64,000 nt of DNA from an uncultured virus (IMG/VR IMGVR_UViG_3300027901_000780) (IMGVR_UViG_3300027901_000780), one strand, 5' to 3'. Numbered from the stretch's first letter, positions 2,846 through 23,476 are shown. Program-made: numbers and translations. Notes: generated by a model from the sequence alone, not told the origin.

Positions 2846-2859
2846 TTTTTTATTCCCCT

Positions 2860-3717
2860 TTATTTCCCAACATAACACTTCATAGGTAATTGTTCCTTAA
2901 ATATTGGTATATATTTTTTTCCTGTTATCTTTGGTATTAACTCTATTTCTGTTATAATTATTGGTATTTTATTTTCATTCATTCTAATTTCTGCTTCTTC
3001 TTCTCCTAAATATGGATGAGTATTTAATAATATTGTATCTCTCCAATTTACATCTTTTTTGCTCACTAATCCTGTTATTAATATACTCTTTGTTTCCTTA
3101 CCAAAATCTTTTCTCCAATGTGCTTCTACCCTATTTTTATCCCAACTCCAATATTTTCCTATTTCCTCACAATTTAAATCATTAAAATCTTTTATTGTTA
3201 TCATTCTATATACTATAAATATATCATTAAAATCTTCAAATACATCCATTATATCTTCATATGTACCAATAATATCTTCTTTTAAATTTTCTTCTACCTT
3301 TTTCTTCAATTCTTTTTCTTCTTCTTCAGTTATTTCTCTTCCTAATTTTTTCTCTAAATTTGGTTTATATATATATTCTACTCTATCATCTATTTGTTCC
3401 TCAATATAATCACTATTCCACCCTTCCCAATCTTCATAAAAATCATCATAAGATTTAAATGCTTGATTTATTAATCTATTAATCTTTGCCTTTTGTTCCC
3501 ATTCTAACTTTGACCACTCCCATTTTTCTATTCCATCCTTTATTACTTTTACCTTACTTAAACATATATTTCCTATACAACAATCTTTAATGGCATTATC
3601 TAAATCATTTTCCTTAATATTTCCATCCATAATTTCTTTTATGGAATACCCATTTTGAATTAAACTATTTTTTATACAATTATTCATTAATTTTTCTAAT
3701 AAAGACATTTCAATCAT
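2860..3717 (-). CDS. C-x8-GY-x21-C domain fused to putative ADP-ribosyltransferase-like domain
   Basis: IVYRMI...GKYWSWD...EEEAEI resembles the R-S-E triad; N-terminal CIKNSLIQNGYS..IKDC module. Confidence 0.55.
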   Translation of the reverse strand: MIEMSLLEKLMNNCIKNSLIQNGYSIKEIMDGNIKENDLDNAIKDCCIGNICLSKVKVIKDGIEKWEWSKLEWEQKAKINRLINQAFKSYDDFYEDWEGWNSDYIEEQIDDRVEYIYKPNLEKKLGREITEEEEKELKKKVEENLKEDIIGTYEDIMDVFEDFNDIFIVYRMITIKDFNDLNCEEIGKYWSWDKNRVEAHWRKDFGKETKSILITGLVSKKDVNWRDTILLNTHPYLGEEEAEIRMNENKIPIIITEIELIPKITGKKYIPIFKEQLPMKCYVGK

Positions 3718-3747
3718 TTTTATTTCTTTATTTTAATTTCTTCAATT

Positions 3748-4287
3748 TTATCCCCATAATCTTCTCTTTTTTATTTTTCTTTTCATTCTAATAGTTATAT
3801 CACTATTACTATTATTTCTTATTTCTGATATTATTGATATTACATTCTTCTTATCTCCAAATAAAACATCATATAATCCTTTTGACTTAGTTAATTTATC
3901 ATCACAAATTCTTACTACTTTCATAAATTCTTCTTGATTTACCATATCACTCTCTATGTCATCTATTTTATAACCTAATCTAAATAAATATAATTTTGCT
4001 ACTGCCACAACAATATCATGCCTTAATTCATCAATTATTCTTTGATTAATAACCTTAATTTCATCATCCTTTAAGTTAAAAATATTTTTTATTCTATCTA
4101 ATTTATCTTTATCAACAATCAATATCTTTGTTCTTTCATTATTATCTTTAAACTCTATAAAATCTTCATTTACATTCTTACTTAGTTTATCTATGTTATT
4201 TGTATTTTCAAGAACCTTTAAAATCTCATCATCTGATTCAATTTCTAAAAATTCTGCTAAATCTTCATCTTCATCTTCAATTACCAT
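3748..4287 (-). CDS. Hypothetical protein with degenerate GY-x21-C module
   Basis: LFRLGYKIDDIESDMVNQEEFMKVVRIC. Confidence 0.8.
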   Translation of the reverse strand: MVIEDEDEDLAEFLEIESDDEILKVLENTNNIDKLSKNVNEDFIEFKDNNERTKILIVDKDKLDRIKNIFNLKDDEIKVINQRIIDELRHDIVVAVAKLYLFRLGYKIDDIESDMVNQEEFMKVVRICDDKLTKSKGLYDVLFGDKKNVISIISEIRNNSNSDITIRMKRKIKKRRLWG

Positions 4288-4290
4288 CTT

Positions 4291-5007
4291 TTATCCACCA
4301 CTTAATAATAAAATATTTTTTATATATTTCTTATTTGATTCTATTACTGATTTTTTACTAATATTTAAAGTTTTCATTATATCTTTATAATATTCTTCAC
4401 CTAATACATTTGCTATTATTCCACTTGCTATTCCTTTCTTACTTTTTCCACGAATTACTATCCTTGTCTTTGGTTCTATCTTTTGATATTTATTTACTAA
4501 TTTATTAATTTTCTTTACATCACTTTTCTTTATATCATGTTCCAATATGAATTTAGTTATCATTTCTTCTAATGAAAGTTTTTCTGGATGAAATTTCTCC
4601 CATATCAATTTTTCATATTCGTTTAACTCTTGTTCAAATATTTCTTTCTTCCTAAATGCAGATAATAATACTTCATATCTATATTCATCCCTATATCTTA
4701 CAGCATCTTCCTTTAATTTCTCTAATATAGGTGTAACCCATAAATTTCCTATAATTATCTTATCAAATGGTATATTTTCATATAAAATATCATTTATTAT
4801 CGGCATTAACCTATTTAAACAAATATGTTGAGCAATATCAACTAACTCCTTTTCATCCATTATAATTTCTTTACCTTTTTTGGTAAATCTATCAATAAAT
4901 GTTGTAATACAAGTATCATTCATATTCTCAATATATTCTACTTCTTCCTTTCTACCAACTCCTATTAATCTTTCCTTTAATGTCTTTTCTTCTGACAATA
5001 GTAACAC
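4291..5007 (-). CDS. Hypothetical protein
   Basis: Long ORF in operon-like run; paired Cys TCITT..HICLNRL. Confidence 0.8.
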   Translation of the reverse strand: MLLLSEEKTLKERLIGVGRKEEVEYIENMNDTCITTFIDRFTKKGKEIIMDEKELVDIAQHICLNRLMPIINDILYENIPFDKIIIGNLWVTPILEKLKEDAVRYRDEYRYEVLLSAFRKKEIFEQELNEYEKLIWEKFHPEKLSLEEMITKFILEHDIKKSDVKKINKLVNKYQKIEPKTRIVIRGKSKKGIASGIIANVLGEEYYKDIMKTLNISKKSVIESNKKYIKNILLLSGG

Positions 5008-5076
5008 ACCTATAATAATATATTGATTGATTACTATTATTAATAATAAAAAATTAATATTTTTACTACTTTATTA

Positions 5077-5682
5077 TTATTCTTCTTCTTCTCCCGTTAT
5101 TATCTTTTCTATTTCAGTTGGTTCTTCTACCCTTCTTCTTGCTCTTTCAGTTACAATTTGACTTATTGTTTCTGGTGGTAATCCAAGTTTTCTATCTGTA
5201 CAACTGTCAGCAACATTAATTATTTCATCAATTCCTACTAATCCATTGAGTATATCTTCTGCTGTATATCCTGCCTCTTGTAATGTATCAAGAATACAAC
5301 TTAAATTTCTATTAACATAATCATCCATCTTATTATGTAATTCATCTTTAATCTTTCCTTTTGCTCTCCATCTAAAGAAACCACCCCTTCTTATAGCATA
5401 ATAAAATGTTTCTCCTGCCCTTCCTACTCTACTAAATGCTGACATTATTTTACCAATTACCTTTTTCGTTGTCTTTGGTTCTTCTGTTTGTGGTAATTCT
5501 GGTTTAAATTTCTGTGGCTTTAATGCACCAAATTCTGGATTTCCATCTTCTACTGTATATATAGTATCTCCTTCAATGACTATTTCTCCTTTTTCAATTC
5601 CATCCATTAAATCTTTTACTGCTATTCCATCCATTTCTGTTCCATCTTCATATTCATACTTACATTTATTTTTTTCACTCAT
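5077..5682 (-). CDS. Hypothetical protein with C-x8-GY-x21-C module
   Basis: SCILDTLQEAGYTAEDILNG..VADSC; AGGTGA RBS. Confidence 0.85.
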   Translation of the reverse strand: MSEKNKCKYEYEDGTEMDGIAVKDLMDGIEKGEIVIEGDTIYTVEDGNPEFGALKPQKFKPELPQTEEPKTTKKVIGKIMSAFSRVGRAGETFYYAIRRGGFFRWRAKGKIKDELHNKMDDYVNRNLSCILDTLQEAGYTAEDILNGLVGIDEIINVADSCTDRKLGLPPETISQIVTERARRRVEEPTEIEKIITGEEEE

Positions 5683-5691
5683 TTACATCAC

Positions 5692-6105
5692 CTATTTTAT
5701 TTTCTTTAAATAAATTAAATTATTTTTTAAATTCCTTCTTCTTCTTTCATATGATTCTAATTCTTCTTTTGTTAATAATCTTTTTCCTAATGGTGGATGA
5801 AAAGACCAATATAATTGTGCTTTTTTCCTTTGTTCTTCTATTTCCTCTGATGTTAATAATGTAAATTTATGGAAAAATTTACCTAATTCTATACATTTTT
5901 TTCCTGCTAATTTTATTTCTTCATTTGTAAAAATAGTTTCATCCTTTATTACTTTTGAAATTAATGTTGTTACTTCTAATCCCCTCATTTCACTTAATCT
6001 CTTTAATAAACATAAAAATAATGGTATTTTATCATCTTGTTTTGATATTTCTAATATTTCTTTAAACTTTTCTTTAAAAAAACTCATATTATTACTTCCT
6101 TTCAC
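5692..6105 (-). CDS. Paralog of the isolated basic protein at 39349-39696
   Basis: FKEKFKEIL..IPLFLCLLKRL..EIKLAGKKCIELGKF aligns with FKGKFKGLL..VPQFMCLIRNL..EISDAGKACIDAGKF. Confidence 0.85.
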   Translation of the reverse strand: MKGSNNMSFFKEKFKEILEISKQDDKIPLFLCLLKRLSEMRGLEVTTLISKVIKDETIFTNEEIKLAGKKCIELGKFFHKFTLLTSEEIEEQRKKAQLYWSFHPPLGKRLLTKEELESYERRRRNLKNNLIYLKKIK

Positions 6106-6634
6106 ATATTAATATTTCTTTATTTGCCATATTCCATAACTTCATAAATTTATTTATATTTATTTTTCTATTTTTTCCTTTTTTTAATTGTGGCGATGGA
6201 TCATGATATATTATCTCCTTTATATTTCCTTCCTCATCCATTTCATAACCAGTTGGTACTATTGAATGACGACCATTTTTATTTATTTTCTTCCATTGCC
6301 ACCTTACTACTACTGAATCATCATTATCTATCATATCAATTAATTCATCTATTGAAAATAATTTCTTATTTTCACAATAAACATTCATATTTAATTTTAA
6401 CTTAACACCTAATAACTTATTTAAACAAACATCTATCCCTTCTAAACCTATTGCATCTGGATGTTCTTTCACTCCTAATATTATTGCACATTCTTTTATT
6501 AATTCATCTTGTGTTATCCTTCTATCTATTATACCTTTTTCTTTTAAATGTGCTGTTATCATCTCAATACCTGCTTCTGTACAGGTATTCTTTTTTGTTT
6601 CTTTAAAAAATGGTACTTCATTTAATATCCTCAT
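6092..6634 (-). CDS. C39-like cysteine peptidase
   Basis: VPFFKE..TCTEAGIEMI, GRHSIVPTGY, IIYHDP: Cys-His-Asp arrangement of C39-like peptidases. Confidence 0.8.
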   Translation of the reverse strand: MRILNEVPFFKETKKNTCTEAGIEMITAHLKEKGIIDRRITQDELIKECAIILGVKEHPDAIGLEGIDVCLNKLLGVKLKLNMNVYCENKKLFSIDELIDMIDNDDSVVVRWQWKKINKNGRHSIVPTGYEMDEEGNIKEIIYHDPSPQLKKGKNRKININKFMKLWNMANKEILICERK

Positions 6635-9405
6635 TATTTTCCACTACTATTCCCTTTCATTTTATAATATTTTTGTACTATTCCAACAAATTCTTCATAC
6701 CCATCAGTTATCATTAATTCTCCATCAGTTATTGGTCTAAATGGTGATATTAATTCTGGTTTTCTATATATTACTACATCATTTCCAATAAAATCAATTT
6801 TATAATAATTTCCTGATTCTATTATATTCTCTATTATTAATTTAAACCTTTCATTATCTACTCCTTTTTTATCAAGTTTTAATTCTCTTAACATCTTTCC
6901 TATATGAAATGTAATCTTATTTGTTAATACCTTTATTGCAAAATCTTCAGCCTTTGATCTCTTAAACTTTTCAAATTCTTCTAATGATATATTAAAGTTT
7001 TCAACTTTCTTATCTAAATTATTTATAATTTCTTCTAACTTATTAATTCCAATAGTATATCTTCTTTTTGTTTTTAATGTTCTTGCCTTTTTCTTTTTAT
7101 AATTTAATTCATCCAATTCTCTATTTAATACAATTAATTGATTTTTTAATTTATTTAATATTTTTTTCTCATATTCCTCAATTTCTTCTACATCTTCTTT
7201 ATTTATTATTGCATATGTAAATCCTTCTTCTACATTATATTCTATTGGTGCTTTAAACATATTTATTACTTTAAAATGAAAATCAGTTGAAAATTCCCTT
7301 ATCTTTTTCCTTGTTAATTTAAATGGATATACTAACTCTAATTCATCTTTTGACATTTGTGTATATTTTGCTGGTACTTCATATAATCTACCAGTCCTTA
7401 TACCCTTTCTTATATATTTTATATTAACTGTTAAATCATTTATCTTCTCTCTTAATCCTAATAAAAACAAATCATAATCAAATATCCCTTTTAATTCACC
7501 TATTTCCAAATTTAATAATATTAAATTCTCCTTTTCATTTAAATCTTCTATTAAAATATCTCCAGAAATAATTTTATTTCTTAATTCTTTTAATTTATTT
7601 AATCTTTCATTTCTTATTGTTACTAATCTTTTGAATCCTTCAATCCTTTTATGTAATGGTCTTACTTTTAACTTACCCTTTAATTCTGATAATAATTTCT
7701 TTGTTTCAAATGGTAATGTTAATTCAACACCTAATTCTTCTTCTCTTACTTTCCTTCCAGTTACTACTATTTCTTTTACTTTCCATCCTTTTGGTATATC
7801 ATCTTCAAATCCTATAACCTTTTTAACTTTATAAAACTCTGGTTCTTCTGGTGTTGTTGCCACCATTTTCTCTCCAATATATTTATAAATTGTTCCAGTT
7901 GGAATATTATATGCTTCCTCTTCTTTAAATATTCCCAACATTTCTTCTTTCTCTATATCAATATTTTCTTGTTTTAAAAAATTTCTCCATTTTCCAATAA
8001 ATCTTATAAATCTTACTATTGCTTTATTATTTCTTTTTATCTGACCTTCAACTTGTTTTCTTCTTTCTAAATTAATAGTACTTTTTAATTGGAAATCTAA
8101 TTGTTCATTAATTTCTGTTAATAGACTTATTTCCTTTCTTATTTTGTCATATGAGAACTCTAATTTCTCCCCTGTTATTGGGCTTTTTAATCCACCTACT
8201 TTCATTGTTGAAATAAATTCTAAATTTACTGGCTTTTCTAATTCATAATCTATATCATCTTTTACCTTTTTAAAATTATCTATAAAATCCTCTTTTGTTT
8301 TATAATCATATTTTATTGGTACTAATATAACATATCCTTCTAATAATTCTGTATATTCCTTTACACTCTCTACTGGCATTAATAACTTATTTCTTTCTGC
8401 TGTTGCCCTCTCATTTCCAGATAATTTAAACTTTTTTGCAAATTTTGTTCCTTTAGGTTTCATAATAACTGCTTCTTTTTGTATTACTTCTTTTATTGGA
8501 AAAACATCATCACCAATAATACTCTCTCCTTCAATTATTTGTTTTGTCATTGTTATTTTTGGTTTTGCTATAAAACATTTATCTTCATAACATAAATAAA
8601 TATCATCTAAAACACATGATTTCATTGCTAATTGTAAATCACTCTGTAATTTTAAATCATTTTTATTAACCAATTTTATTATATTAATTAATTCACCATA
8701 TCTATCTTTATTAATACTTCTTAATGTATCTAATAAACAAAATAGATGTCCAACATTAATATCCTTTGTTACCCCACCACCCCATATCTTTTTTCTTCCT
8801 ATTCCACCCTTTTCCCAATCTGTTTTATTTCTTACTTCCTTTAATTTTGAATACCAATTTCTTAATGTTTGCTCAAAAACAACTTTATCTTCTTCACTTA
8901 ATTTTTCAGTTTGTGTAATTATTTCTTTTTGAGTTAATTTATCTTTTAATTGTTCTATTACTATACCAATAGGCTGATTTCTCCCAACCTTTATTCTATC
9001 TTCTGCACCTAATGAAACTGTTTTATTTATTTTTTCTAATTTATTTTCTAAATCAACTATTTCTAAATTAGTTTGATTAATCATTTCTTCTATCTTATTT
9101 AATTGATTTATTGTTAAATCTTTATTATATGATAATTTATATAATCTTTCTTCATTATCTTTTAATTTATTTAATCTTTTTTCAATTAAATTACCTTTTT
9201 TTAATAATATTTCATTTTCTTTATTTATTATATCTTTTCCTTCATGTAACTTTTGTTCTAATTCTTCTAATTGTTCCTCTATCTTCTCTAACTCCTTCAT
9301 TGAAATTTTCTTCTTTGAAATAAATGTTATTTTGCCTAAACCAGAAATTTCTTCTATTTCATCCAAATCTCTCAATGTTCTTTCTTTAGGTTTATTATTA
9401 GACAA
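6634..9405 (-). CDS. Large coiled-coil-rich hypothetical protein
   Basis: 923-aa ORF, several heptad stretches, paired-Cys module FCLLDTL..AMKSC. Confidence 0.85.
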   Translation of the reverse strand: MSNNKPKERTLRDLDEIEEISGLGKITFISKKKISMKELEKIEEQLEELEQKLHEGKDIINKENEILLKKGNLIEKRLNKLKDNEERLYKLSYNKDLTINQLNKIEEMINQTNLEIVDLENKLEKINKTVSLGAEDRIKVGRNQPIGIVIEQLKDKLTQKEIITQTEKLSEEDKVVFEQTLRNWYSKLKEVRNKTDWEKGGIGRKKIWGGGVTKDINVGHLFCLLDTLRSINKDRYGELINIIKLVNKNDLKLQSDLQLAMKSCVLDDIYLCYEDKCFIAKPKITMTKQIIEGESIIGDDVFPIKEVIQKEAVIMKPKGTKFAKKFKLSGNERATAERNKLLMPVESVKEYTELLEGYVILVPIKYDYKTKEDFIDNFKKVKDDIDYELEKPVNLEFISTMKVGGLKSPITGEKLEFSYDKIRKEISLLTEINEQLDFQLKSTINLERRKQVEGQIKRNNKAIVRFIRFIGKWRNFLKQENIDIEKEEMLGIFKEEEAYNIPTGTIYKYIGEKMVATTPEEPEFYKVKKVIGFEDDIPKGWKVKEIVVTGRKVREEELGVELTLPFETKKLLSELKGKLKVRPLHKRIEGFKRLVTIRNERLNKLKELRNKIISGDILIEDLNEKENLILLNLEIGELKGIFDYDLFLLGLREKINDLTVNIKYIRKGIRTGRLYEVPAKYTQMSKDELELVYPFKLTRKKIREFSTDFHFKVINMFKAPIEYNVEEGFTYAIINKEDVEEIEEYEKKILNKLKNQLIVLNRELDELNYKKKKARTLKTKRRYTIGINKLEEIINNLDKKVENFNISLEEFEKFKRSKAEDFAIKVLTNKITFHIGKMLRELKLDKKGVDNERFKLIIENIIESGNYYKIDFIGNDVVIYRKPELISPFRPITDGELMITDGYEEFVGIVQKYYKMKGNSSGK

Positions 9406-9423
9406 AATAACAACTCCATATAA

Positions 9424-9858
9424 TTATAACTTACTTACAATTTTCTTACAAGCATTACTAAAATTTTTATCTTCTACTAATTGTACTAACATCATTTGTG
9501 AAGCATCACAATTACTACACATATCAGTAGTTTTATTCTTTAATGATTTTAATTTAACTTCTTTATTATATTTTATTCCATTATCCATTAAATTATCTAC
9601 AATCTTAGTAATATCTGTTATAAGTTTCTCTGCATCTCCACCATCATTTAATGATTTATTTATTTTAATTAAATCCTTTTTTGAATCTTTTACATTATTT
9701 TTAAACTTTTTATGTGTTTCATCCTCTAATATAATTTCACATTGTTTCACAAGAGTAATAACAGTAGATGAAACCTCTTCCTTTATTTGTTTTTGATAAA
9801 TTTCTTGTGCCTTCTTTAATAATTCTTCTTCTTTTTTTACTCTTTCTTTTCTTAACAT
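9424..9858 (-). CDS. Helical-bundle hypothetical protein, Cys-containing
   Basis: ORF in operon; ends NACKKIVSKL. Confidence 0.8.
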   Translation of the reverse strand: MLRKERVKKEEELLKKAQEIYQKQIKEEVSSTVITLVKQCEIILEDETHKKFKNNVKDSKKDLIKINKSLNDGGDAEKLITDITKIVDNLMDNGIKYNKEVKLKSLKNKTTDMCSNCDASQMMLVQLVEDKNFSNACKKIVSKL

Positions 9859-9863
9859 TTAAT

Positions 9864-10718
9864 TCACCATACCTCAAATGGTTTTATCATCCAATGTTTT
9901 AATTGACTTGGTTTCTCCTTTAATGGTCTTTTTGCTAATGCACCCAACTCTTCAACAGTAAATCCCATCTTATATGCTAAATACATTGCCTCTTTATTCT
10001 CTTTAGGTATTCTAAATGGAAATACTTTTTGTTGTTTTTCACTTAACTCACAAATATCATTTAATACTTCAACCATAAATTTAATGTCATCTCCTTCCTC
10101 TGGTAATGGTAATAACTCTTTAAACCGTAAAAAGAAAATTCTACTTATTAAATTTTTCTGTTCTTTATCACAAATTAATTTATCTAATATTATATTTGCT
10201 GTTTTCATATATGGTGTTCTCTCTATTTCATCTATAACATCCTTAAATACCCTAATTGAATATCTTTCTGGATATTTCTCCAAAAATTCTGCCTTTTTTG
10301 TAATTTCTTCCTCTACCTTTATCCTCTTTTTCCTTACTTTTCCACCTTCAATTATCTTAATAAACCTTTCTTTTTCAATAGATATTTTTTCTTTTTCAAG
10401 TAACATCTTTAATTGTTGTATAGTTATCTTTCCTTCACATACTTGACTTGCTATTCCTAAATATATTTTTCCCTTTTTTGTTTCTTCTATTTTCTTTATC
10501 CAATCAATATCACCAGTTTCTCTTGCCTTCTTTATTAAATTACCATAACCTAATAACTCTAATACCAATATTTCACAATTTAAAAATGTTCTTAATTTCT
10601 CCTTTTCTTCTTCTCTATATTGTATTACTGGATTGTCTATACCTCCAATTGGATAATTCATTGGTAGTTTCCTCATTCTTCCTATAATCTTTTCTTCATT
10701 CTCTGACAATGTAATCAC
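9864..10718 (-). CDS. Hypothetical protein
   Basis: ORF; NCEILVLELLGY..QVC variant of the GY module. Confidence 0.8.
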   Translation of the reverse strand: MITLSENEEKIIGRMRKLPMNYPIGGIDNPVIQYREEEKEKLRTFLNCEILVLELLGYGNLIKKARETGDIDWIKKIEETKKGKIYLGIASQVCEGKITIQQLKMLLEKEKISIEKERFIKIIEGGKVRKKRIKVEEEITKKAEFLEKYPERYSIRVFKDVIDEIERTPYMKTANIILDKLICDKEQKNLISRIFFLRFKELLPLPEEGDDIKFMVEVLNDICELSEKQQKVFPFRIPKENKEAMYLAYKMGFTVEELGALAKRPLKEKPSQLKHWMIKPFEVW

Positions 10719-10946: not shown

Positions 10947-11047
10947 ACTTTTATTGAGTATATATGATGAAATTTATATTCCTACTACTTACTTTTTATG
11001 TTTTTTATTTACCAAATACAAAACACAATATTACTTTACTTATTTAT

Positions 11048-11287: not shown

Positions 11288-11306
11288 CTCCTTAATATAT
11301 TTAAGA

Positions 11307-12642: not shown

Positions 12643-15600
12643 TTATTCCTCCTCCTCTTTACTTAATCCTATTGATCTCTTTAAAAATGCTACCGTACCT
12701 TTTTCTTTTGCTACTACTTTTTCTAATTTTCTCTTTTCTTCTTTTTCTTCTTTTTCACCCACAACTAATAATTTTATTTGTTGTGATATTGACTTACCTT
12801 CTGCTTTCTCCCTATAATTTCTTATTGCATTAATTATTGTTGTTCTCTTCAAATATGCTATAAATCCTACTACTGCCACAATTAAAAATATTAAAATAGG
12901 TTTTAACCATAATGATATTATCTCTAATTGTATTGCAACAACCTCAACCCTTATTATAATTTCTCCTTTTAATAATATATAATCATTTATTGCTATTTTA
13001 TATAATCTATCATTATATGACCAATTAATATATGATGTTATATCTACATAACCAGTTCCATTTATATTCTCATAAATACTAAAATTTAAATAATGTGTTA
13101 CTGGATTATATTCATACCTTCCTAACCTTCCTATAAATTCATATAAAAATCCATACACATTTCTATCTACCTCTATTGTTGTTTCTATTATACCTACTGT
13201 CGGTCTATCTAATATTTCTTCATATAGTGATATAAATGGACTATATATGAAATGTAATTCACCAGTTGAATTTTCTATAATATCTACTGGTATATTCCAA
13301 CTTATTTCATTTACTATTCTTGAAAATCCTATTGAAACTCCTTCATACCTTACAAATAATATTGTCCATTTCTCACTTATATTTGCTTTCCAAAAAGTAC
13401 CATCTTCTGCATAATTTAATACTCCAATATAATATACAATCTCTCCTTTTCTAACCACATCTGTTATTTGTATAACATCTATTATTTCAACATATTTTCT
13501 CTCTTCTGGAAAAGTTGTACCATTTAATATATACCAATTATTGTTATAGTCATCTGTTAAATTTATGTTAATAAATGTAAAGTTATAATAATTTCCTAAT
13601 TCTATTGTTAATTTAAAATTTGTTACTCTTGTATATGTCATTCCATTGTATTTCCATAATGAATAATTTATTTGATAATAATTACCTAAATAATTATTTA
13701 ATATAATACTATAATTTATTATTCTCCAAAAATCTTCTATGTTACTCTTTAATTTTATTCTTAATTTAAAATAATCTGCCAAATCAACCAATGCTGTTAT
13801 ATCTTCTTGAACTATTGGTGTTTGTCCAACCAATAAATATTGTGATTCTGTTTTATTAGTATATATTCTTGGTATTGACATCTGTAACTTCCAATCCCAT
13901 GTTACTGTTAAACCTATTTCTCCTGTTATATCCTTATATTCACTTGATGTTACATTATACCAATATAAAAAATATTCTTCCTGTTCATAATATGTTAAAC
14001 TAAAATATCTTATATCTTTTTCAAAATACACATTATCATAATAATTCTTTGCAAAATTATCTAATTCTGTATCATTTGAATATAACCAAACCTTCAATTC
14101 AAATTTATCATTAATATCTAATTGTATTCCATGTTCTTCTTTAAATGGTAACATTGTCGCTATAAAATCAACTCTTGTATTATAATAATCCCACACATAA
14201 TAATCAAAATACATTACTTCTTGTGATGTACTTATTCCATACATATAATCTTCATTATTTATTAATAAATTAATAACTTCCCTATTACTTATATTAATCC
14301 ACCACTTACTCCTACTACTTGTTTCTAATGATGTATTAAAATTACCTTCATATCTATAATATACTACACCATAAAAGTTATATGTTGTATTTAATGTTCT
14401 TCTCCTGAAAAATAATGGTTCTCCTTCCAAAGAATACATCTCTATAAAGAAATTAGTAATATTTTCTTCATATATCATATTTTCTAACTTATATACCTCT
14501 AATCTTTCTGTTCCAATATCTAAATAATATTCATAATTATATAATCTTGTATAATTTATATATATTTTAAATTCTGTAATATTAATACCACTTAATTCAA
14601 ATAAACTTATATTTAAATTACTTCCTTTATGAATATACATATATTCTACCATATAATTCTCTCTTATATCTTCTACATAAAACCATAATGTGTAATTTAT
14701 ATATAAATCATAAAAAAAGTTATCTTTACTCGTAATTATGTCTATATATAATATATCTGTTCCATTTGAAAACCTATCAAAAGAAAACTCATATAATGAT
14801 TTATTAACTGGAATTAATTCATTTCCCCAACTATAAGTAATATTTAATGTTACATTTCCTGCCTCATAAAAATATCTTAATTCTAAATATAAACTCCAAT
14901 TTTGCCCTTCTATTAATTCATCTGTTATATTATCATATCCTAATGCTTCATGTATAATAATTGTACCATTTCTTGTTTTTAATCCAAATGAAGTAAAATC
15001 ATCAAACCCCGTTGTTATTAAGGTATCATTTATGTATAAATTCTCTAACTCATAAAACTCTGATATATTTGATATAATAATAGTATTTGTTGGTAATATA
15101 ATATTCATAGTACCATTTGTTGAACTTACTCCATGTTGATAAGTATATAACAACTCATCACTTAGTATCAATTCAATATTTTCTTTCCAATTAACAAATA
15201 TTTTATTTTCTAAGTTATAAACTACTCTCTTTACATAACCTAAAGTTATTTCATAATATAATGTATTTGATAATATATCATCTAAATCTGGAGATAAACC
15301 ACTAAACCTATAATTACTCATTTTATCATAATTTCTCCCTTCATAATATATTTCTGGAAAACCATCAGTAACATTACTCCAACTATAATCTATTGCATCT
15401 AAATAAACCATATCATTATCCCATAAATCAACAGTCCTATAATAATAATTATTTATTGAATAATTATTCTCTTGATAAAATAATACATTACTTTTCTTCA
15501 AATCATTATCAATCCATATATTATAAGTGTAATTATCAAATATCTCTAATTTAAAGTGATACCATACCCCTCTTGTTAATGATATTATATCCTCTAATAA

Positions 15601-18600
15601 ATATCCATTAATTACATCAACACCATCTACCATATCATATAATAACTTAATACATATCATATCATCATACCTTAATTCAAGTGTATGCTCACGACAAGTA
15701 TAACTATATGAATCTTCAACAGCAAACCACCACTCTATTATTCCACTTGACATATTACCATTATTTTTACTATTTGTACTATTAAAAAAATTCATTATTG
15801 AATTATAATCATCATCCCAATAATCCCATAATCTCACTACTTTACTATGTTCCTTAAAATTATCAACCCCCCTAACATCACCACCATTTTCATATTCATC
15901 CCATTCATCAATCTCTCCTCCCTTTGTATATGTAAATGAATATGTACCTTTATAATTGTTATATAATGGTGTCCCATTTAATCTTAAATCAATACTACCA
16001 TCTGGTAAAGTTGTATAATTATCAAATAGATTTATATTTATTAATAAACAATCTATTGTTATATTATAAAATATTGTTTCATTTATATTATATCCACTTA
16101 TATTAAATTGCATCTCCTTTATTTCTGTTCCTATCCTATTTCTTACATAATTACTTAAATTTGTTCTATCAATTAATATTGTTCCATTAGTTATTGTTAT
16201 ATTATTTAAATATGCAATTACATCCCATTCTACATTTGTATAATCATAAATACTAAATGATATATTTATATCACTAAATGAATCATTTATTATATTATTA
16301 TCTACATATGTAATATAATCCATATTATATTTAACCGTTATATTTGACATAAAATTTTCATAATAATATAATGTTTCATTAAATGTAATATTAACACTTC
16401 CTCTTGTTCCATTTGCTATATATAAATTTGCCCCATCACAATACCTTAATAATGTATCATTATTTAATTCACTTGTATTTACAAATGGTTGTAATACTGC
16501 ATAATCAATATATACAGCAGAAGAATTATCTGTTATTAAATTAAAACCTCCATCAAACTTAAATAATAAAGTTTTATTATTTTTTTCAACTAATCCATTT
16601 AAGTCATTTACAATATACCATGTATAATTATAATTATTTGGTAATATAAAGTCCCAATCCTTTTCTTCTAATATATACCATTCATTACTACTCCAATTCC
16701 ATATTTCTATTGATACACCTTCTGGTTGTGTAGTACCCATTCCCCAATGTAATGTTAAATTTAATTTTAATGCTTCATATATTAAATTCATTCCATATTC
16801 CGTTAAATTATAGTATAAATATATCTGTGAAACAACATCATCATCATAATTTGAACTTGCAAATACCCTATATACTGAATCATAATCTTCTGGTATTATT
16901 AAATCCCATGTACTTGTATAATTATTAAATACTCCATCAGTAATTGTTCCATATGAATAATTATATCCATCATGTGCATATCTTGTATCATTAAAATAAA
17001 TTAATTCACCTTCTCCTATAAATCCTTCTGTTATATTAATATACTCTAATATATAATTAGTATTATAATATGTTTCATTATAATCAATAAATATATCAAC
17101 CCCTGTTGTATTCCATTGTGTATTTTGGGTAGTCCCATATCCTTGTGGCATAACCCAATATAATGAATTATCTCCTTCCAAAATATTATTTGTAATATCT
17201 CCTTCTATATATCCATCTAATTCAAATGTTGGATCACTTTTATTGTATAAACTCACATTTTCAAATTGTATTGATGTTTGATTAATATTCCAACTTATAT
17301 TATCATATTCATTATATGTTCTATTAATATAATATGAATAATTTCCATTTATTTGATTCCAATACATTGAATTATTTGAATTAATATTAACATCATAATA
17401 TCCTCTCCAATCATATATATATTGGTTTTCACACTCCCTATATATTGGTTCTTCTGTAATTACCTTTAACTCTAATATTGAATTATTAGTAAATTTATTA
17501 TCTGGTTCAAGTACCATATTAAATCCACTTGTACCCACCTTTAATTCTTGGTCACCTGAATTAAATGTAACTCCAGTTGTTATTTCTGTCCAATCTACAT
17601 CTACCCCATATGAATTTTTACAAGTTAAATGTACATTTTGAAATGTCATTATATCAAATATATATATTTCTGGATTAGTTAAATTACCCTCTACTGGATT
17701 AGTTATTATATATCCCATAGTCCATTCATCTATCAATGTAAGTTCATCTATCATCCAAAATCTTCCAGTTATTTCTATATCTGCTATAACCTTTATTCTT
17801 TTTCCAGTTCTCCAATCTATTCCAGTTGTAAAATTAATTGATCTCTTTGGCATTAATGTATTTAATAACTTTCCTTTTCCTAATCCACTATCAGATATAC
17901 TTATATTATTTGCCCGTAAATTTATTTCTCCACATTGTACTGTATCAAAAAATGTTATATTATTTACATTTACTGATAATTCATATTCTCCTGCTAAATT
18001 ACCACCACTACTTTCAAATCGTATTCTATAATAAAAGAAATTTGTATAACTAAAGTATAATATTGTACTATGACTTGGTGGATTACTTACATAAGTTGTA
18101 TATTGATATATTTTATTTATATCATACACATCAACATAAAATCTTGTATATGCTATTGTCGCTATTACATCTCCTTCTGGTACAACCGTAAATTCTTGAT
18201 TATATAAAAATGATATATTTATACTACTTGCATAATGAAACATAGTATGATTCATTAATTCAGTATGTACCCCAACCCATCCACCACTATCATAATGCAT
18301 CTCAAAATAATTATTTGCCTCTGCAAAACTATATGTACTTGGTGTAGAAACACAACCAACATCTCTTAATGTTTCATTTACCATCCTTATATAATCAATT
18401 AATACTGATATATTTCCATTATCTGAAGCAACTGTTTCTGTTAAATTTATTCCTATATGTGTAATATCTTCATCTATTGTTATTGGCAATTCTAACCTTC
18501 CCCATTGTGTTACACTATAATATGATGACCACACCCATCCAAACGTATCATACCTTACTCCTATACATGAATGTATATTTTGTATAGTTCCACTCCATCT

Positions 18601-19986
18601 ATAATTTGTTAATATTGCTTGACAATAATTACCATTATAATTTACATCTGGTATATCTTTTATTATTGTTATATTATTTATCTCTTCGTAAAAACCAAAA
18701 TCATTTATTCCATGACTATCAATACTTAACATTAATTTATCATCACCATATGTTGTTGGAAATAACTTTACCTCATAACTTCCATTAGGAAAATTATTAC
18801 TATCATCTTGTGTTGTCATAGCACCTATATACCACTCATCTTCTAATAATAAATTACTACTAAAATCCATATTTTGATAATCATATACTGGATTTGCAAA
18901 TGTTACCTTTATATATAAATAATCATACATTACATATTTGTCTATTGCTGGTGATGTAGTATATCCAGAATGAACAGCAATAGACATATAACCATTATTT
19001 GTCCAATCTATATAATCCTTACCATTTCTTTTCCATAATGTTCCTCCACTCTGTCTTTCATATAATGTAATAAATCCTACTTGCCAATAACTTACATCTG
19101 TACCTGCCCAATTAAATAATTCTTCATCTAAATCACCACCAGTTGTTGTCCATATAAATACTCTTCCCCTATCTAATGCACCTGTACTACCCTTTCCATG
19201 TGCAAATAAACCGTAATAAACATCAACCCTTTCTATATAATTTTGCCAATTTCCTAATGAACCAATTTGTCCTTGTTTATCTCTATCGTTACCATATCTA
19301 TTATTTACTAAATCAATATCTCCTATATAATAATCAAAAAAGGATAATGTATTCATTCCTGCCGCTGTATCATACCTTCCATCTGTTTCAAAATTATAAG
19401 TATCATTATAATCTACTTCATCATTATCTCCCCAAAAATTATCTGAATCAATATAAGCACCTTGTGTATGTATTTCAATATTATTATATATTCCCCTATA
19501 ACTATATGTTGAATAAGTACCTGTTACTGCATGTTGTACCGAAGTTTCATCCTTTGCATATATATTTGCACTTATTCCCCAAAAATCATCACTATTATCA
19601 TTAAAATCTTCTATTATTATATTACCATCATATAAACTTTCATCTTCTAATATTTCTGCACTATAATTATATTCAAATGTTTGATTATATGTATCATATA
19701 CCTTTAATCTATTAATTAATATACTACTATTTACTATATCAAATTGTGGTGATAATTTATCCCAATAATTAGGTATATAATAATCATATTCATAATATGT
19801 CTGAGTACCAACTATCCCTATTGTTGAATCAAACAAATCTATTTCACTACTTGATTTTTCATTTATACTATTATAAATATTATTTTTTTCATTATATAAT
19901 ATATTATTTTTCATATAAAATATACTTATAAAAAATTGAAATATTAATATTAATATAATTACTGTACTTACTATTTTTTTATTCAT
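12643..19986 (-). CDS. Giant membrane-anchored surface glycoprotein / adhesin-like protein
   Basis: 2447 aa; N-terminal signal MNKKIVSTVIILILIF, very many N-x-S/T sequons, beta-rich, C-terminal TM followed by KR and a charged tail. Confidence 0.9.
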   Translation of the reverse strand: MNKKIVSTVIILILIFQFFISIFYMKNNILYNEKNNIYNSINEKSSSEIDLFDSTIGIVGTQTYYEYDYYIPNYWDKLSPQFDIVNSSILINRLKVYDTYNQTFEYNYSAEILEDESLYDGNIIIEDFNDNSDDFWGISANIYAKDETSVQHAVTGTYSTYSYRGIYNNIEIHTQGAYIDSDNFWGDNDEVDYNDTYNFETDGRYDTAAGMNTLSFFDYYIGDIDLVNNRYGNDRDKQGQIGSLGNWQNYIERVDVYYGLFAHGKGSTGALDRGRVFIWTTTGGDLDEELFNWAGTDVSYWQVGFITLYERQSGGTLWKRNGKDYIDWTNNGYMSIAVHSGYTTSPAIDKYVMYDYLYIKVTFANPVYDYQNMDFSSNLLLEDEWYIGAMTTQDDSNNFPNGSYEVKLFPTTYGDDKLMLSIDSHGINDFGFYEEINNITIIKDIPDVNYNGNYCQAILTNYRWSGTIQNIHSCIGVRYDTFGWVWSSYYSVTQWGRLELPITIDEDITHIGINLTETVASDNGNISVLIDYIRMVNETLRDVGCVSTPSTYSFAEANNYFEMHYDSGGWVGVHTELMNHTMFHYASSINISFLYNQEFTVVPEGDVIATIAYTRFYVDVYDINKIYQYTTYVSNPPSHSTILYFSYTNFFYYRIRFESSGGNLAGEYELSVNVNNITFFDTVQCGEINLRANNISISDSGLGKGKLLNTLMPKRSINFTTGIDWRTGKRIKVIADIEITGRFWMIDELTLIDEWTMGYIITNPVEGNLTNPEIYIFDIMTFQNVHLTCKNSYGVDVDWTEITTGVTFNSGDQELKVGTSGFNMVLEPDNKFTNNSILELKVITEEPIYRECENQYIYDWRGYYDVNINSNNSMYWNQINGNYSYYINRTYNEYDNISWNINQTSIQFENVSLYNKSDPTFELDGYIEGDITNNILEGDNSLYWVMPQGYGTTQNTQWNTTGVDIFIDYNETYYNTNYILEYINITEGFIGEGELIYFNDTRYAHDGYNYSYGTITDGVFNNYTSTWDLIIPEDYDSVYRVFASSNYDDDVVSQIYLYYNLTEYGMNLIYEALKLNLTLHWGMGTTQPEGVSIEIWNWSSNEWYILEEKDWDFILPNNYNYTWYIVNDLNGLVEKNNKTLLFKFDGGFNLITDNSSAVYIDYAVLQPFVNTSELNNDTLLRYCDGANLYIANGTRGSVNITFNETLYYYENFMSNITVKYNMDYITYVDNNIINDSFSDINISFSIYDYTNVEWDVIAYLNNITITNGTILIDRTNLSNYVRNRIGTEIKEMQFNISGYNINETIFYNITIDCLLININLFDNYTTLPDGSIDLRLNGTPLYNNYKGTYSFTYTKGGEIDEWDEYENGGDVRGVDNFKEHSKVVRLWDYWDDDYNSIMNFFNSTNSKNNGNMSSGIIEWWFAVEDSYSYTCREHTLELRYDDMICIKLLYDMVDGVDVINGYLLEDIISLTRGVWYHFKLEIFDNYTYNIWIDNDLKKSNVLFYQENNYSINNYYYRTVDLWDNDMVYLDAIDYSWSNVTDGFPEIYYEGRNYDKMSNYRFSGLSPDLDDILSNTLYYEITLGYVKRVVYNLENKIFVNWKENIELILSDELLYTYQHGVSSTNGTMNIILPTNTIIISNISEFYELENLYINDTLITTGFDDFTSFGLKTRNGTIIIHEALGYDNITDELIEGQNWSLYLELRYFYEAGNVTLNITYSWGNELIPVNKSLYEFSFDRFSNGTDILYIDIITSKDNFFYDLYINYTLWFYVEDIRENYMVEYMYIHKGSNLNISLFELSGINITEFKIYINYTRLYNYEYYLDIGTERLEVYKLENMIYEENITNFFIEMYSLEGEPLFFRRRTLNTTYNFYGVVYYRYEGNFNTSLETSSRSKWWINISNREVINLLINNEDYMYGISTSQEVMYFDYYVWDYYNTRVDFIATMLPFKEEHGIQLDINDKFELKVWLYSNDTELDNFAKNYYDNVYFEKDIRYFSLTYYEQEEYFLYWYNVTSSEYKDITGEIGLTVTWDWKLQMSIPRIYTNKTESQYLLVGQTPIVQEDITALVDLADYFKLRIKLKSNIEDFWRIINYSIILNNYLGNYYQINYSLWKYNGMTYTRVTNFKLTIELGNYYNFTFININLTDDYNNNWYILNGTTFPEERKYVEIIDVIQITDVVRKGEIVYYIGVLNYAEDGTFWKANISEKWTILFVRYEGVSIGFSRIVNEISWNIPVDIIENSTGELHFIYSPFISLYEEILDRPTVGIIETTIEVDRNVYGFLYEFIGRLGRYEYNPVTHYLNFSIYENINGTGYVDITSYINWSYNDRLYKIAINDYILLKGEIIIRVEVVAIQLEIISLWLKPILIFLIVAVVGFIAYLKRTTIINAIRNYREKAEGKSISQQIKLLVVGEKEEKEEKRKLEKVVAKEKGTVAFLKRSIGLSKEEEE

Positions 19987-20030
19987 TAATATTTACCTCA
20001 TATTCTAATATTATAATTTTTATTATTTAT

Positions 20031-20327: not shown

Positions 20328-20350
20328 TTCTCATTCATCTCCTTTATATT

Positions 20351-20740
20351 TTACTTTATTTTCTTCATATTACAATTCTTTTCATCATATATTTTAATAA
20401 AATTATTTAACTCTTTTAGCCTCATATCCCTTTGTTCTGACAATGTATTTATATCTTTATTCCTTGACCTAATAATAGAATTTATATACTCTATTCTCTT
20501 CTTATATGATTCTATTAATTCATCTTCTTCAGAAAACTTTTCTCCTGCTTCTAATTTTTCAATTTTCTTTTTTGCTAAACTAATTATTATCTTTTCAGCA
20601 TTAATTTTTTCTTTATCTAAATTTCTATTATATTGATATTTTTCTTCCATTGATTTAACTATCTTACTTATATTATCTATTTCCTTTTCTAATTCTTTCT
20701 TCATTTCTTCACATGATAATCCTCTAAAAAGTATTTCCAT
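20351..20740 (-). CDS. Paired-Cys coiled-coil hairpin protein (CxxKKL family)
   Basis: LSCEEMK...CNMKKIK. Confidence 0.85.
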   Translation of the reverse strand: MEILFRGLSCEEMKKELEKEIDNISKIVKSMEEKYQYNRNLDKEKINAEKIIISLAKKKIEKLEAGEKFSEEDELIESYKKRIEYINSIIRSRNKDINTLSEQRDMRLKELNNFIKIYDEKNCNMKKIK

Positions 20741-20747
20741 TTTTATT

Positions 20748-21104
20748 TCACTCCTTTTTCTTTATGAATAATGCCCAAGTTCTTCCATATAATCCTTTTT
20801 GTTCATGTCCCATACCTAATATTTCAAATCCCTTTTTATTCATTTCTGATTTCCACTCTTCCTCTGTAATACTTAATCCTTTTAACATACAATAATCTTT
20901 CATTTCTTCTTCAGTTATTTTACTAATAGGTTTCTTTAATTCTAATGAAAGTTCTGCCAATGGTATGCAACTACCACTCCAACCTTCATATTTTACTATA
21001 AAATTATCATTTAACTTTTCTTCTCCACACTCATCTGACACTTCATCTACTATTTCCCATAATCTATTTAATACTTTCTCTGGTATTATATCCTTTATAC
21101 CCAT
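20748..21104 (-). CDS. Hypothetical protein
   Basis: ORF with GAGGT RBS. Confidence 0.8.
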   Translation of the reverse strand: MGIKDIIPEKVLNRLWEIVDEVSDECGEEKLNDNFIVKYEGWSGSCIPLAELSLELKKPISKITEEEMKDYCMLKGLSITEEEWKSEMNKKGFEILGMGHEQKGLYGRTWALFIKKKE

Positions 21105-21116
21105 AAAACTTATACC

Positions 21117-21983
21117 TCAATTAATATTTAATAATTTATTTATTTCTTCATATTTTCCACTTTCTTCTAACATATATATTTTTATTGCTAAATTTGAATC
21201 CTCCCTAAATATAAATGGAAAAAAGTTTATTCCAAATTTAAGATTAGGAAATTCTTCTCTTTTTTCCAATTCTTTTTCTTGTTCTTCTGTTAAATAAAAT
21301 AAATATCCCTTTCCCATTAATAATGATTTAATATTATCTAAATAGTCTTTAGTAATTGGTGTATCTTTTAATTCTTGTTGTAAAAATATTATTAATTTAT
21401 TTGTACTTATAAATTCATTTTTATCTAAATAATCATCTAACTTATCTTTTATCTTTCTAAATTCTGCTTCCATACCCAAACTCGTACCTAAATCATGAAT
21501 AATAATTAATTTATTTATATCACAACTCTTATTTTTTGCTATATCTTCAATAAATTTTATAATATTATCTCTATTTTCCATTTCTTTCCAAATATTATCC
21601 AACTTTATAGTTAATTCATTAATCATACCTTGAATAACATTTTTATCTATACCCTTCCATTTCTCTTGCATTTCTATTTTTCTACCAATACAATCAGGAC
21701 ATATTTTTAATACTCCTTCTTCTTCCAATCTTTTCCATTCTTCTATTTCTTCTTCTGTATATGGTTCTTCTATCATTATAGATAAACCACCCCTCTCTCC
21801 TGCTATTTTATTATATATATCTAATAAATTTTTCTTTTCTACTATAAATTTATCAATTTCATTTTGTAATTTATTACAATCCATTTTCTCTATTTTTTCT
21901 TTTATTTTTGTTATATCTACTTCTGTCTTTAACATTATTCTTTTTGCATCTAATATACCATTATCATCCATTTTTATCATCAA
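21117..21983 (-). CDS. Paired-Cys hairpin fused to C-terminal domain
   Basis: MDCNKLQ...SCDINKL internal motif, CPDC insert. Confidence 0.8.
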   Translation of the reverse strand: MMIKMDDNGILDAKRIMLKTEVDITKIKEKIEKMDCNKLQNEIDKFIVEKKNLLDIYNKIAGERGGLSIMIEEPYTEEEIEEWKRLEEEGVLKICPDCIGRKIEMQEKWKGIDKNVIQGMINELTIKLDNIWKEMENRDNIIKFIEDIAKNKSCDINKLIIIHDLGTSLGMEAEFRKIKDKLDDYLDKNEFISTNKLIIFLQQELKDTPITKDYLDNIKSLLMGKGYLFYLTEEQEKELEKREEFPNLKFGINFFPFIFREDSNLAIKIYMLEESGKYEEINKLLNIN

Positions 21984-23098
21984 CCCATAAATACAAAGTT
22001 TAAAAATAATATCTTTAAATTATGAAATGAATGTACCTCTATTGCACATATTACATGATAAGTCATTGATAATGCTGATAAAATTAATCCCATACAGAAT
22101 ATATATAATACTGAATCCATTACTAAATCAGCACCTAATATAACCACTAATTGAAATGTATGTAATAATGCAAATACTACATTACTTATAATATGACTGA
22201 ATCCCCTTATTACTGTTGTACTTACATTATATCTTAATTTATCAACCATTGTCCTATGAATTAATGGAAATAATATTCTATCTGGAAATACTCCATGAAA
22301 GAATATACTCTCTCCAAATGGTACTAATGTAAAATTAAGGAATATCTCCGTACTAAATGGTATAGACATACTCATACTAACAACAGTACCTTCTGGTTCT
22401 AAATATTCATACCCAAGCATTGCCATACTTGCTAAACTCATCATACTACTTATTCCTATAAATATAACAATACCAAATGCTATACCCTCCAATATTCTCT
22501 TTATACTTACCCCACCTATATCTTTTAAATCTATGTCATCTACTCCTTCTTCATTAAAATATTCCTTTCTTTCTTTTGACAAACCTCCTCTTCTTACCTC
22601 TAACACATCTTCTACTCTGAAATTTTTCTCTAACATATCTCTCTCTTTTACTTGTTGAAGAGTATTCGGTGACAAAAACACTATCATACCAAATATTATG
22701 AGGAATGTATCTAATAGAAATATTGTTAAATTAGTTGGTATTTCATATCTTACCACACTCAATAGAAATACTATACTAAATAGAAATATTATTCCCAATA
22801 CTAAGAACATAATATTTACTTGTCGCCTTTCTAAACCTTCCGCCTCTAATAATGTTCTATAATCTTCTTCTAAACCATCCAACACTTCCTCATTTGTTCT
22901 TGGTATTTCTTCCTCATCAATATACATATATCTTCTCTTTGTTTTCTTCGTTCTTTTCTTTTCTTCTTTAAAAGTCTTTTTCTTTGCTTCCTCTATTTTT
23001 TGTATATTTCCATTTCTTACATTACTCATTAATTGTGCCAAATTTTGGGTATTTTTCTTCTTTATATCCTCTATTAATTCTTCTTTCTTTTTTACCAT
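21980..23098 (-). CDS. CPBP (Abi/type II CAAX) intramembrane protease
   Basis: VPFGESIFFHG (degenerate EExxFR), SNVVFALLH, HSFHN motifs with TM helices. Confidence 0.8.
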   Translation of the reverse strand: MVKKKEELIEDIKKKNTQNLAQLMSNVRNGNIQKIEEAKKKTFKEEKKRTKKTKRRYMYIDEEEIPRTNEEVLDGLEEDYRTLLEAEGLERRQVNIMFLVLGIIFLFSIVFLLSVVRYEIPTNLTIFLLDTFLIIFGMIVFLSPNTLQQVKERDMLEKNFRVEDVLEVRRGGLSKERKEYFNEEGVDDIDLKDIGGVSIKRILEGIAFGIVIFIGISSMMSLASMAMLGYEYLEPEGTVVSMSMSIPFSTEIFLNFTLVPFGESIFFHGVFPDRILFPLIHRTMVDKLRYNVSTTVIRGFSHIISNVVFALLHTFQLVVILGADLVMDSVLYIFCMGLILSALSMTYHVICAIEVHSFHNLKILFLNFVFMG

Positions 23099-23140
23099 TA
23101 CTATTCTTCCATAATTAATTTAATATTATTTAATATTTAT

Positions 23141-23452
23141 TTAAATTATCCCAAATTCTTTTAATCTTTCTTCTCTTAATTTTTTAATTTCTAATTTTCT
23201 TGATGCTAATTTTAATGCACCACAACTATCTAATGCCTTTAATATTTTATCTTTTGGAATATTATGCATCTCTACATCTATCATTTCATATCCATAAGAA
23301 TCTAAAGCACCTGCTAAACAATGTGGATCAACTAAATCTACTAAATTATCATATTCATGGTTTGTTATTTTCTTAATTTTTCTTATAAAATTCCTTTCAC
23401 TTGATTCTGTTTTTAAATATATTGGTCTTGCATCTTCCTTTTCCTTACTCAT
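23141..23452 (-). CDS. C-x8-GY-x21-C protein
   Basis: HCLAGALDSYGYEMIDVEM..ALDSC. Confidence 0.85.
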   Translation of the reverse strand: MSKEKEDARPIYLKTESSERNFIRKIKKITNHEYDNLVDLVDPHCLAGALDSYGYEMIDVEMHNIPKDKILKALDSCGALKLASRKLEIKKLREERLKEFGII

Positions 23453-23476
23453 TTATATTACCTTCTTTTTATAATT

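Follow-up and report, generated by a model that had tools for sequence, protein, structure and literature searches.

In a 64,000-nucleotide stretch of DNA from an uncultured virus (IMGVR_UViG_3300027901_000780 of IMG/VR; the whole of this stretch is called the window below), we investigated a small protein module, or mini-domain, with the exact spacing C-x8-GY-x21-C, which an initial annotation had described in five proteins and had taken for a portable three-helix unit. Genes and their products are named here by the first coordinate of the gene, and the positions of all features discussed are collected in Table 1. A regular expression for this spacing, run on all open reading frames (ORFs) of the six-frame translation (596 ORFs), gave five matches, all on the minus strand (in 2860, 5077, 10719, 11048 and 23141), whereas shuffling of the residues within the same ORFs (2000 shuffles) gave 0.0095 matches on average and never more than one; the exact spacing in five proteins is therefore real. 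The sixth protein, 3748, was said to keep GY-x21-C without the first Cys, and this is what its sequence contains; a profile hidden Markov model (HMM) built from the five seeds finds it with E 1.2e-4 among the window ORFs, with E 1.6e-4 when a related metagenomic contig (L001, described below) is added, and with E 1e-12 after iteration. The module takes up the N-terminus of 2860, lies near the C-terminus of 5077 and stands in three small proteins with flanks of only 15-44 residues on each side, so that the N-terminal, internal and stand-alone placements are as annotated. The residues following the second Cys are those given in the annotation and form a degenerate version of the string C-x-[LI]-[KR]-[KR]-[LIM]. 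Within 2860-11287 lie five of the six copies; this block is syntenic in L001 and also holds a papain-like cysteine protease and a 923-residue protein (6634-9405).

A search of 1.84 billion representative proteins with a profile built from the six segments gave 35 that reached the threshold of E<=0.001: five were the window's own, three were true relatives, one was a protein designated P0034, and 26 were matches of several stretches to long proteins. The true relatives comprise P0009 (orthologue of 5077), P0023 (orthologue of 11048) and P0016 (339 residues), each of them a singleton cluster known from one contig. P0034, a short repeat protein with a retrotransposon-peptidase match, was not counted among them, and P0022, the one inspected of the 26 multi-stretch matches, turned out to be a tandem AGYS-type repeat protein, an artefact of the kind seen with DotG/IcmE. 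Tandem L-K-x-A-G-Y-S-A-x-[DE] decapeptide repeats (DotG/IcmE, PDB 7muc) are a trap for motif searches of this type, as they cross-match through the sum of weak stretches.

Contig L001 (15.4 kb, 27% G+C) is syntenic with positions 1925-12642 of the window, and counterparts of 11048, 10719, 9864, 6634, 6092, 5077, 4291, 3748 and 1925 can be recognised in it by eye; the counterpart of the papain-like protease is an ORF of similar size and sequence at the matching place (L001 5028-5582). Four orthologue pairs were aligned, with 49-58% identity (5077/P0009, 6634, 10719 and 11048). Both cysteines are retained in the orthologue of 10719 (L001:1199-1423, 58% identity) and in that of 11048 (P0023 or L001:830-1057, 53% identity), the latter with NY instead of GY, and both orthologues of 5077 (P0009 and L001:6388-6921) preserve the spacing as well as the two cysteines. 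The orthologue of 3748 (L001:8591-9223) likewise lacks the first Cys. Run iteratively over the window, L001 and P0016, the HMM converges on six window members, five L001 members and P0016 (E<=1e-11), with one spurious frame of 39 residues (L001:15138-15254) also drawn into the set. In an alignment of 11 sequences the second Cys, the Tyr and one Leu (Leu10) are invariant, the Gly and one Ile nearly so; the first Cys is present in nine, the two sequences without it being 3748 and its orthologue.

Searches further afield found nothing in IMG/VR for the element's family B DNA polymerase (PolB), P0009, P0016, a family alignment (A4) or a back-translated peptide pattern, and nothing for alignment A4 in the GTDB genomes. 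The peptide pattern search yielded three bacterial chance matches in which the family signal was absent, and the portions of the literature reached by a full-text search held no account of such a family. Judged from these sequence searches, the module seems to be a novel and very narrowly distributed domain family with no detectable relatives beyond a rare lineage.

Portability, as proposed in the initial annotation, was borne out by the relatives. Between the first 55 residues of 2860 and residues 26-80 of P0016 the identity is 47%, and the remainders of the two proteins are unrelated; P0016 gives a near-threshold match to Prok-JAB (PF14464; E 3.3e-5, 24.2 bits against a cut-off of 25), and its sequence shows the pattern HxHx7SxxD. 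A third protein, L001:9747-10841 (plus strand), combines an N-terminal module with a TIM barrel of the AP_endonuc_2 family (PF01261, endonuclease IV-type; E 2.9e-17) and is without significant similarity to the C-terminal part of 2860; in its module an additional residue follows the Gly, and the tail is a perfect C-R-L-K-K-M. In 5077 the module follows a conserved domain of no assigned function. As closely similar tags thus stand before three unrelated C-terminal parts and the module lies near the C-terminus in 5077, it moves between partners, two of which are enzyme-like.

The predicted fold agrees with the annotated three helices. AlphaFold2 (AF2) models place helices at residues 22-31, 36-41 and 46-55 of the complete 75-residue 10719 protein (five-row alignment; predicted local distance difference test, pLDDT, 75-86 over the domain and about 83-86 in the helices) and the same helices at residues 3-12, 17-22 and 27-42 of the 45-residue domain alone (11 rows; mean pLDDT 84.9), with the third helix passing through the second Cys into the tail. 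In this layout helix 1, which starts with C-h-x-x-x-L, leads through a G-Y turn to the short helix 2, and a G-x-[IV] turn connects the latter to helix 3, which ends in [DK]-[SD]-C; behind it come an h-basic-basic-h tail, weakly kept, and in many cases a proline linker.

No confident match to a known domain of unrelated function emerged from Pfam, Foldseek, VIA-align or BFVD. Neither Pfam (scanned over 51 proteins of the minus-strand left arm of the window and 26 of its right arm) nor PHROGs (51 proteins) offered a family for any module-bearing protein. Foldseek, run twice against the PDB, returned nothing at E<=0.001; VIA-align against 48,161 chains gave a best Z of 4.5 and four HMG boxes at Z 3.1-3.8, none of them outstanding; the best E in the BFVD fold search was 1.5, again without an outstanding match; and a feature-based search of the ESM Atlas with the 10719 protein had no usable match. 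Profile searches of the PDB with the 923- and 201-residue proteins found nothing, and the matches of the module profile to PDB sequences were taken to be artefacts, namely the DotG/IcmE 'AGYS' decapeptide repeats, of which no single stretch was significant, and 21 residues of influenza PB1 (E 0.018). When the six segments were scanned against Pfam at E<=10, one of them matched UBA partially, next to a decapeptide-repeat artefact. The module seems, therefore, to fit no known family, UBA included.

Two known systems invite comparison nevertheless. Proteins of the CHCH type are alpha-helical hairpins, too, whose helices are tied via facing cysteines, but they carry two Cys per helix (Cx9C twice) and form two disulfides, whereas each member of the present family has one Cys at each end, with a spacing of 29 to 118 residues in the wider family described below, and shows no sequence similarity to them; membership was rejected on these grounds. 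Dockerins and the phage T4 capsid-targeting sequence resemble the module in that a short unit is common to otherwise unrelated proteins of one system, enzymes included. Homology to either was not found, though; the segments have no dockerin or EF-hand match in Pfam at E<=10, and the calcium-ligand positions are not kept, since taking the conserved Gly as position 6 of an EF-hand loop puts the nearly invariant Ile at position 3. The use of a small, Cys-closed helical unit as a movable tag is a design principle of known kind.

The looser variants which had been annotated in seven further proteins (4291, 5692, 6634, 9864, 26145, 34673 and 39349) fared less well. In all of them two cysteines bracket 29-45 residues of helical sequence, and wherever an L001 orthologue exists it keeps the pair, so the bracket pattern itself holds. 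Homology is another matter: none of the seven was recovered by the iterated HMM at E<=0.01, and when they were compared with the family alignment by hhalign, with 150 random 50-residue segments of right-arm proteins as control (maximum score 15.8), only 6634 exceeded the control, with a score of 20.6 (Table 1). Homology is consequently supported, at a modest level, for at most one of the seven. The proteins 5692-6105 and 39349-39711 (both minus strand), which lie about 33 kb apart, look like paralogues by eye, and in both the string C-x-L-[KR]-x-L stands at the first of two cysteines 38 residues apart.

The string following the second Cys had also been taken to link the mini-domain to a large group of Cys-bracketed alpha-hairpin proteins. 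Its strict form, C-x-[LIVMFS]-[KR]-[KRNT]-[LIM], occurs in 18 window ORFs and five ORFs of L001; 13 of the 18 have it at the extreme C-terminus and end 5-6 residues past the Cys, and most of the proteins contain exactly two Cys. An HMM of the 23 motif segments recovers all 23 seeds. The motif codons differ at synonymous sites and the residues vary conservatively, which argues for selection on the protein and not on the DNA, and a DNA-level signal was rejected for this reason. The link to the mini-domain is plausible from the shared architecture, the similar [DK]-[SD]-C context and the one L001 member with a full motif (CRLKKM), so that the two groups may be homologous; profile statistics, to which we return, do not show it. 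A 46-residue frame between two larger genes (29609-29746, minus strand), ending in GCELKKL, is matched by the hairpin profile with E 4.8e-6 and is, on this similarity, probably an unlisted small member of the hairpin family.

For the geometry of the hairpins we used the 15 window proteins with the second Cys in the motif, whose Cys-Cys spans range from 35 to 113 residues. Two proteins with only one Cys (27111 and 33872) and two in which the motif stands at the first Cys (5692 and 39349) were left out, as were the small ORF 29609-29746 and 21117; in 35857, C58 was taken as the first Cys and the protein was counted as a miss. In 8 of the 15 the exact Cys-Cys midpoint has a Pro or Gly within 1.5 residues (1.9 expected), and in 11 it has one within 3.5 residues (3.6 expected), values that none of 20,000 shuffles reached; three hairpins contain only one Pro or Gly in the whole span, at a distance of 0.5 residues from this midpoint. 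Long coiled-coil hairpins are the structural neighbours of the ESM Atlas model of 24555-24956 (pLDDT 0.85; template modelling score, TM, of the neighbours 0.82-0.95). Together with the helix breakers at the midpoint, these neighbours show that the hairpin is antiparallel and that its two cysteines lie in register where it is open. The corresponding midpoint of the mini-domain is within the short second helix, so that in the modelled fold helices 1 and 3 would be the arms and helix 2 the cap.

Taken together, we suggest, with a likelihood that we put somewhat short of even, that the mini-domain is a lineage-specific, Cys-clasped folding and docking module, the shortest hairpin branch, which holds cargo on an assembly built by paralogues. 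The five exact copies and 3748 would be paralogous copies of a real, self-folding domain of about 40 residues, restricted to this lineage and belonging to a large Cys-bracketed antiparallel alpha-hairpin family that fills the left arm of the element. The first helix would begin with one Cys and the last would end with the other, and the pair would meet at the open end and clasp the hairpin, either as an intramolecular disulfide or as half of a metal site, thereby stabilising so small a unit enough to move between proteins. The element would then use this portable association module alone or on variable cargo (the C-terminal domain of 2860, a JAB-like domain, an endonuclease-IV-type barrel) and would probably hold that cargo on the assembly of paralogues. 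Docking or addressing is preferred as a role because closely similar tags occur on unrelated cargo and five of the six copies share one conserved block with the protease and the 923-residue protein.

Several observations weigh against this proposal. The hairpin-motif HMM, searched at E<=10, detects no mini-domain member over the Cys motif, only 11048 at E 8.8 and elsewhere in the protein; conversely, the mini-domain HMM reaches hairpin proteins at E 0.2-0.7 only, yet they top the sub-threshold list. The clasp cannot be obligatory, since 3748 and its orthologue as well as the hairpins 27111 and 33872 are without the first Cys. A plain up-down-up bundle would place the two Cys at opposite ends, a disulfide may be unable to form in the host cell depending on its redox state, and paralogues are non-independent observations.

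Since domains of such small size do not as a rule fold without a disulfide or a metal, the Cys pair could be nothing but a fold-stabilising staple, the paralogues acting independently, for example in interactions with the host, and sharing no docking target. This we hold to be unlikely, if deserving of serious attention. It is in line with the 25 of 51 left-arm proteins that contain exactly two Cys (a further seven of the 51 contain four), with the strong divergence of the sequences between the cysteines, and with the lack of any binding signal. A complex prediction for the families of 10719 and 11048, with a score of 0.01 where the mark is 0.32 and no verdict from the tool, counts neither for nor against. 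The closely similar N-terminal modules on three unrelated C-terminal parts and the five copies within the block syntenic in L001 look, on the contrary, like a shared function, and the conserved tail and invariant Tyr suggest a surface read by something. As to the chemistry of the clasp, proteins with an even Cys count are in excess, as would suit a disulfide-rich proteome, and the element encodes a thioredoxin. Disulfide-rich proteomes are known from work on thermophiles. Thermophily itself was set aside as an argument, because the IVYWREL fraction of 0.46, which translates to about 97 °C by a composition-based formula, is confounded by AT-richness and coiled-coil content.

Alternatively, each Cys pair could be half of a Zn or Fe site that is completed in cis or by another module, so that units dimerise or chain through metal ions held in common, much as is seen with the Rad50 zinc hook or the CD4-Lck zinc clasp, which likewise involve Cys pairs on helical hairpins as potential half-sites completed by a partner. 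Metal half-sites are favoured by an additional, conserved C-x4-C behind the bracket pair, giving four Cys each in 2860 (C47 and C52, within CC-x4-C; 3541-3717, minus strand), where it is kept in P0016, and in 6634 (C-x7-C-x4-C; 8575-8739, minus strand), where all four are invariant in the L001 orthologue. They are favoured also by the 288-residue protein 21117-21983 (minus strand), whose bracket cysteines 36 (MDCNKL) and 154 (SCDINKL) enclose a C-P-D-C at residues 95-98, with the exact midpoint at 95, that is, at the hairpin tip, a layout resembling a zinc hook; such a site would, moreover, be workable in a reducing cytoplasm. Nevertheless, we regard this as rather improbable, as Pfam scans gave no metal-binding family, there are no conserved His or Asp ligands, and 3748 and its orthologue have a single Cys. 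The mini-domain itself is not a Rad50-type hook, its cysteines being 31 residues apart at the two ends, read at the open end instead of the apex, with no CxxC.

The presence of a co-encoded protease raises the question of a processing signal. The C-terminal half of the membrane protein 21980-23098, which adjoins the module gene 23141-23452, matches the Rce1-like (CPBP) family PF02517 above the curated cut-off (E 2.4e-6, 28.2 bits against 22.4), although only when this half is scanned alone, and the Glu, His, His and Asn that we take to be characteristic of the family's three motifs seem to be present. The second Cys and its h-basic-basic-h tail could then be a CaaX-like signal for processing or lipidation, of which the mini-domain would be a degenerate, internalised copy. 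As with the CaaX box, a Cys near the C-terminus recurs in many proteins (13 of the 18 strict-motif ORFs) beside an Rce1-like protease, and many membrane proteins are encoded in the same arm. The hairpin Cys, however, is at position -6 or -7 and not at -4, so that 5-6 residues such as ELKKL follow it where a CaaX box has three; the residues next to it are charged and not aliphatic, the tail is basic, and the mini-domain Cys is internal, at least 19 residues from the end. CaaX-box membership was rejected for these reasons. No prenyltransferase was found in the Pfam scans of the window, and mobile elements often encode CPBP proteases for unrelated purposes. We thus attach little probability to this explanation, and equally little to its broader version, in which a hitherto undescribed archaeal C-terminal processing or lipid-anchor signal on about 20 hairpin substrates would be read by the element's Rce1-like protease and the mini-domain would bring enzymes to a membrane assembly. 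As we know of no natural substrates of archaeal Rce1 homologues, these proteins would, if that were true, form the first such set.

Least probable of all, in our estimation, is a divergent UBA/TS-N-like domain binding a ubiquitin-like protein, an idea which would suit the fusion to the JAB-type isopeptidase domain in P0016. Like the module, UBA domains (PF00627) are three-helix units of some 40 residues in which a Gly-aromatic turn follows helix 1, and they occur as portable modules beside enzymes. The one partial match covers 19 residues only (residues 3-21; E 0.093) and, at 13.0 bits, stays below the gathering score of 22.4, so that membership by sequence was rejected; no UBA entry is among the 50 best rows of the VIA-align comparison, the bracketing Cys pair is foreign to UBA, and no ubiquitin-like gene was seen in the window. 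The Cys-clasped docking module remains the explanation we prefer.

The element carrying these genes has a G+C content of 24% in the window, in which two gene arms diverge near 39.7-40.3 kb: the left one, dark and membrane-rich, runs on the minus strand from 1 to 39.7 kb, the right one, devoted to replication, on the plus strand from 40.3 kb on. GC skew is about -0.5 up to about 40 kb and +0.5 past that point, an extreme strand asymmetry; since its sign and the gene direction switch together, the coding strand is always purine-rich (a G excess of about 0.5). Almost no left-arm protein has a Pfam or PHROGs match. In addition to the right-arm genes of Table 1, a DNA methylase and a DprA-like protein were found by the Pfam scan; tRNA genes are missing from the window. 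The polymerase (52790-55510) is present on three contigs, the longest of 76,711 bases, and shares no more than 39% identity with any further protein that was found, its named matches being cellular polymerases of Nitrososphaerota, Thorarchaeota and Bathyarchaeota. In our reading, the element is the genome, at least 76.7 kb long, of an uncultivated archaeal entity of virus- or plasmid-like kind, the word 'virus' being used in a presumptive sense, as no capsid hallmark was found among the window proteins. The thioredoxin may bear on the redox state of the many Cys-pair proteins. A protein of 2447 residues (12643-19986, minus strand), rich in Asn, Tyr and Thr, with hydrophobic segments at both ends and no Pfam or PHROGs family, may be a surface or envelope protein.

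Table 1. Positions of the mini-domains, their candidate variants and other features in the window
Feature	Position	Strand	Remarks
Mini-domain in 285-residue protein 2860-3717	3580-3678	-	Residues 14-46, N-terminal; regular expression and HMM
Mini-domain in 201-residue protein 5077-5682	5200-5298	-	Residues 129-161, near C-terminus; regular expression and HMM
Mini-domain in 75-residue protein 10719-10946	10779-10877	-	Residues 24-56; regular expression, HMM and AF2
Mini-domain in 79-residue protein 11048-11287	11144-11242	-	Residues 16-48; regular expression and HMM
Mini-domain in 103-residue protein 23141-23452	23222-23320	-	Residues 45-77; adjoins Rce1-like gene
Degenerate copy in 3748-4287	3880-4014	-	GY-x21-C kept, first Cys missing; HMM
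Expanded variant C-x40-C in 923-residue protein 6634-9405	8614-8739	-	hhalign 20.6 with L001 orthologue, both Cys, two insertions
Looser variant in 34673			hhalign 13.7, both Cys covered, within noise
Looser variants in 9864, 4291, 5692/39349 and 26145			hhalign: only local matches of 9-13 columns around one Cys
Papain-like cysteine protease	6092-6634	-	Peptidase_C70 E 3.6e-6, Peptidase_C39_2 E 1.9e-5; inside mini-domain gene block
Array with most of the Cys-bracketed alpha-hairpin paralogues ending in C-x-[LI]-[KR]-[KR]-[LIM]	20351-37129	-	
Rce1-like (CPBP) intramembrane protease domain	21980-22540	-	PF02517; C-terminal half of membrane protein 21980-23098
Rad51/RadA-like ATPase	45441-46289		Right-arm replication module
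Hjc resolvase	51217-51714		Right-arm replication module
Family B DNA polymerase	52790-55510	+	Right-arm replication module
Thioredoxin-fold protein	55540-56013	+	PF00085 E 1.6e-11; active site CTPC; N-terminal extension of about 40 residues

Pfam, PHROGs, the PDB sequences and the structure libraries do not contain the family, which consequently forms a new entry and not an extension of an old one. Should the proposed explanation be true, one uncultivated archaeal mobile element has built much of its dark proteome on a single rule, by which a Cys pair closes a helical hairpin whatever its length, and has turned the 33-residue form of this hairpin into a movable tag on enzymes. The rule would then help to group some 30 proteins that otherwise defy annotation as parts of one system, and the module itself would offer protein engineering a minimal and naturally portable clasped helical scaffold.

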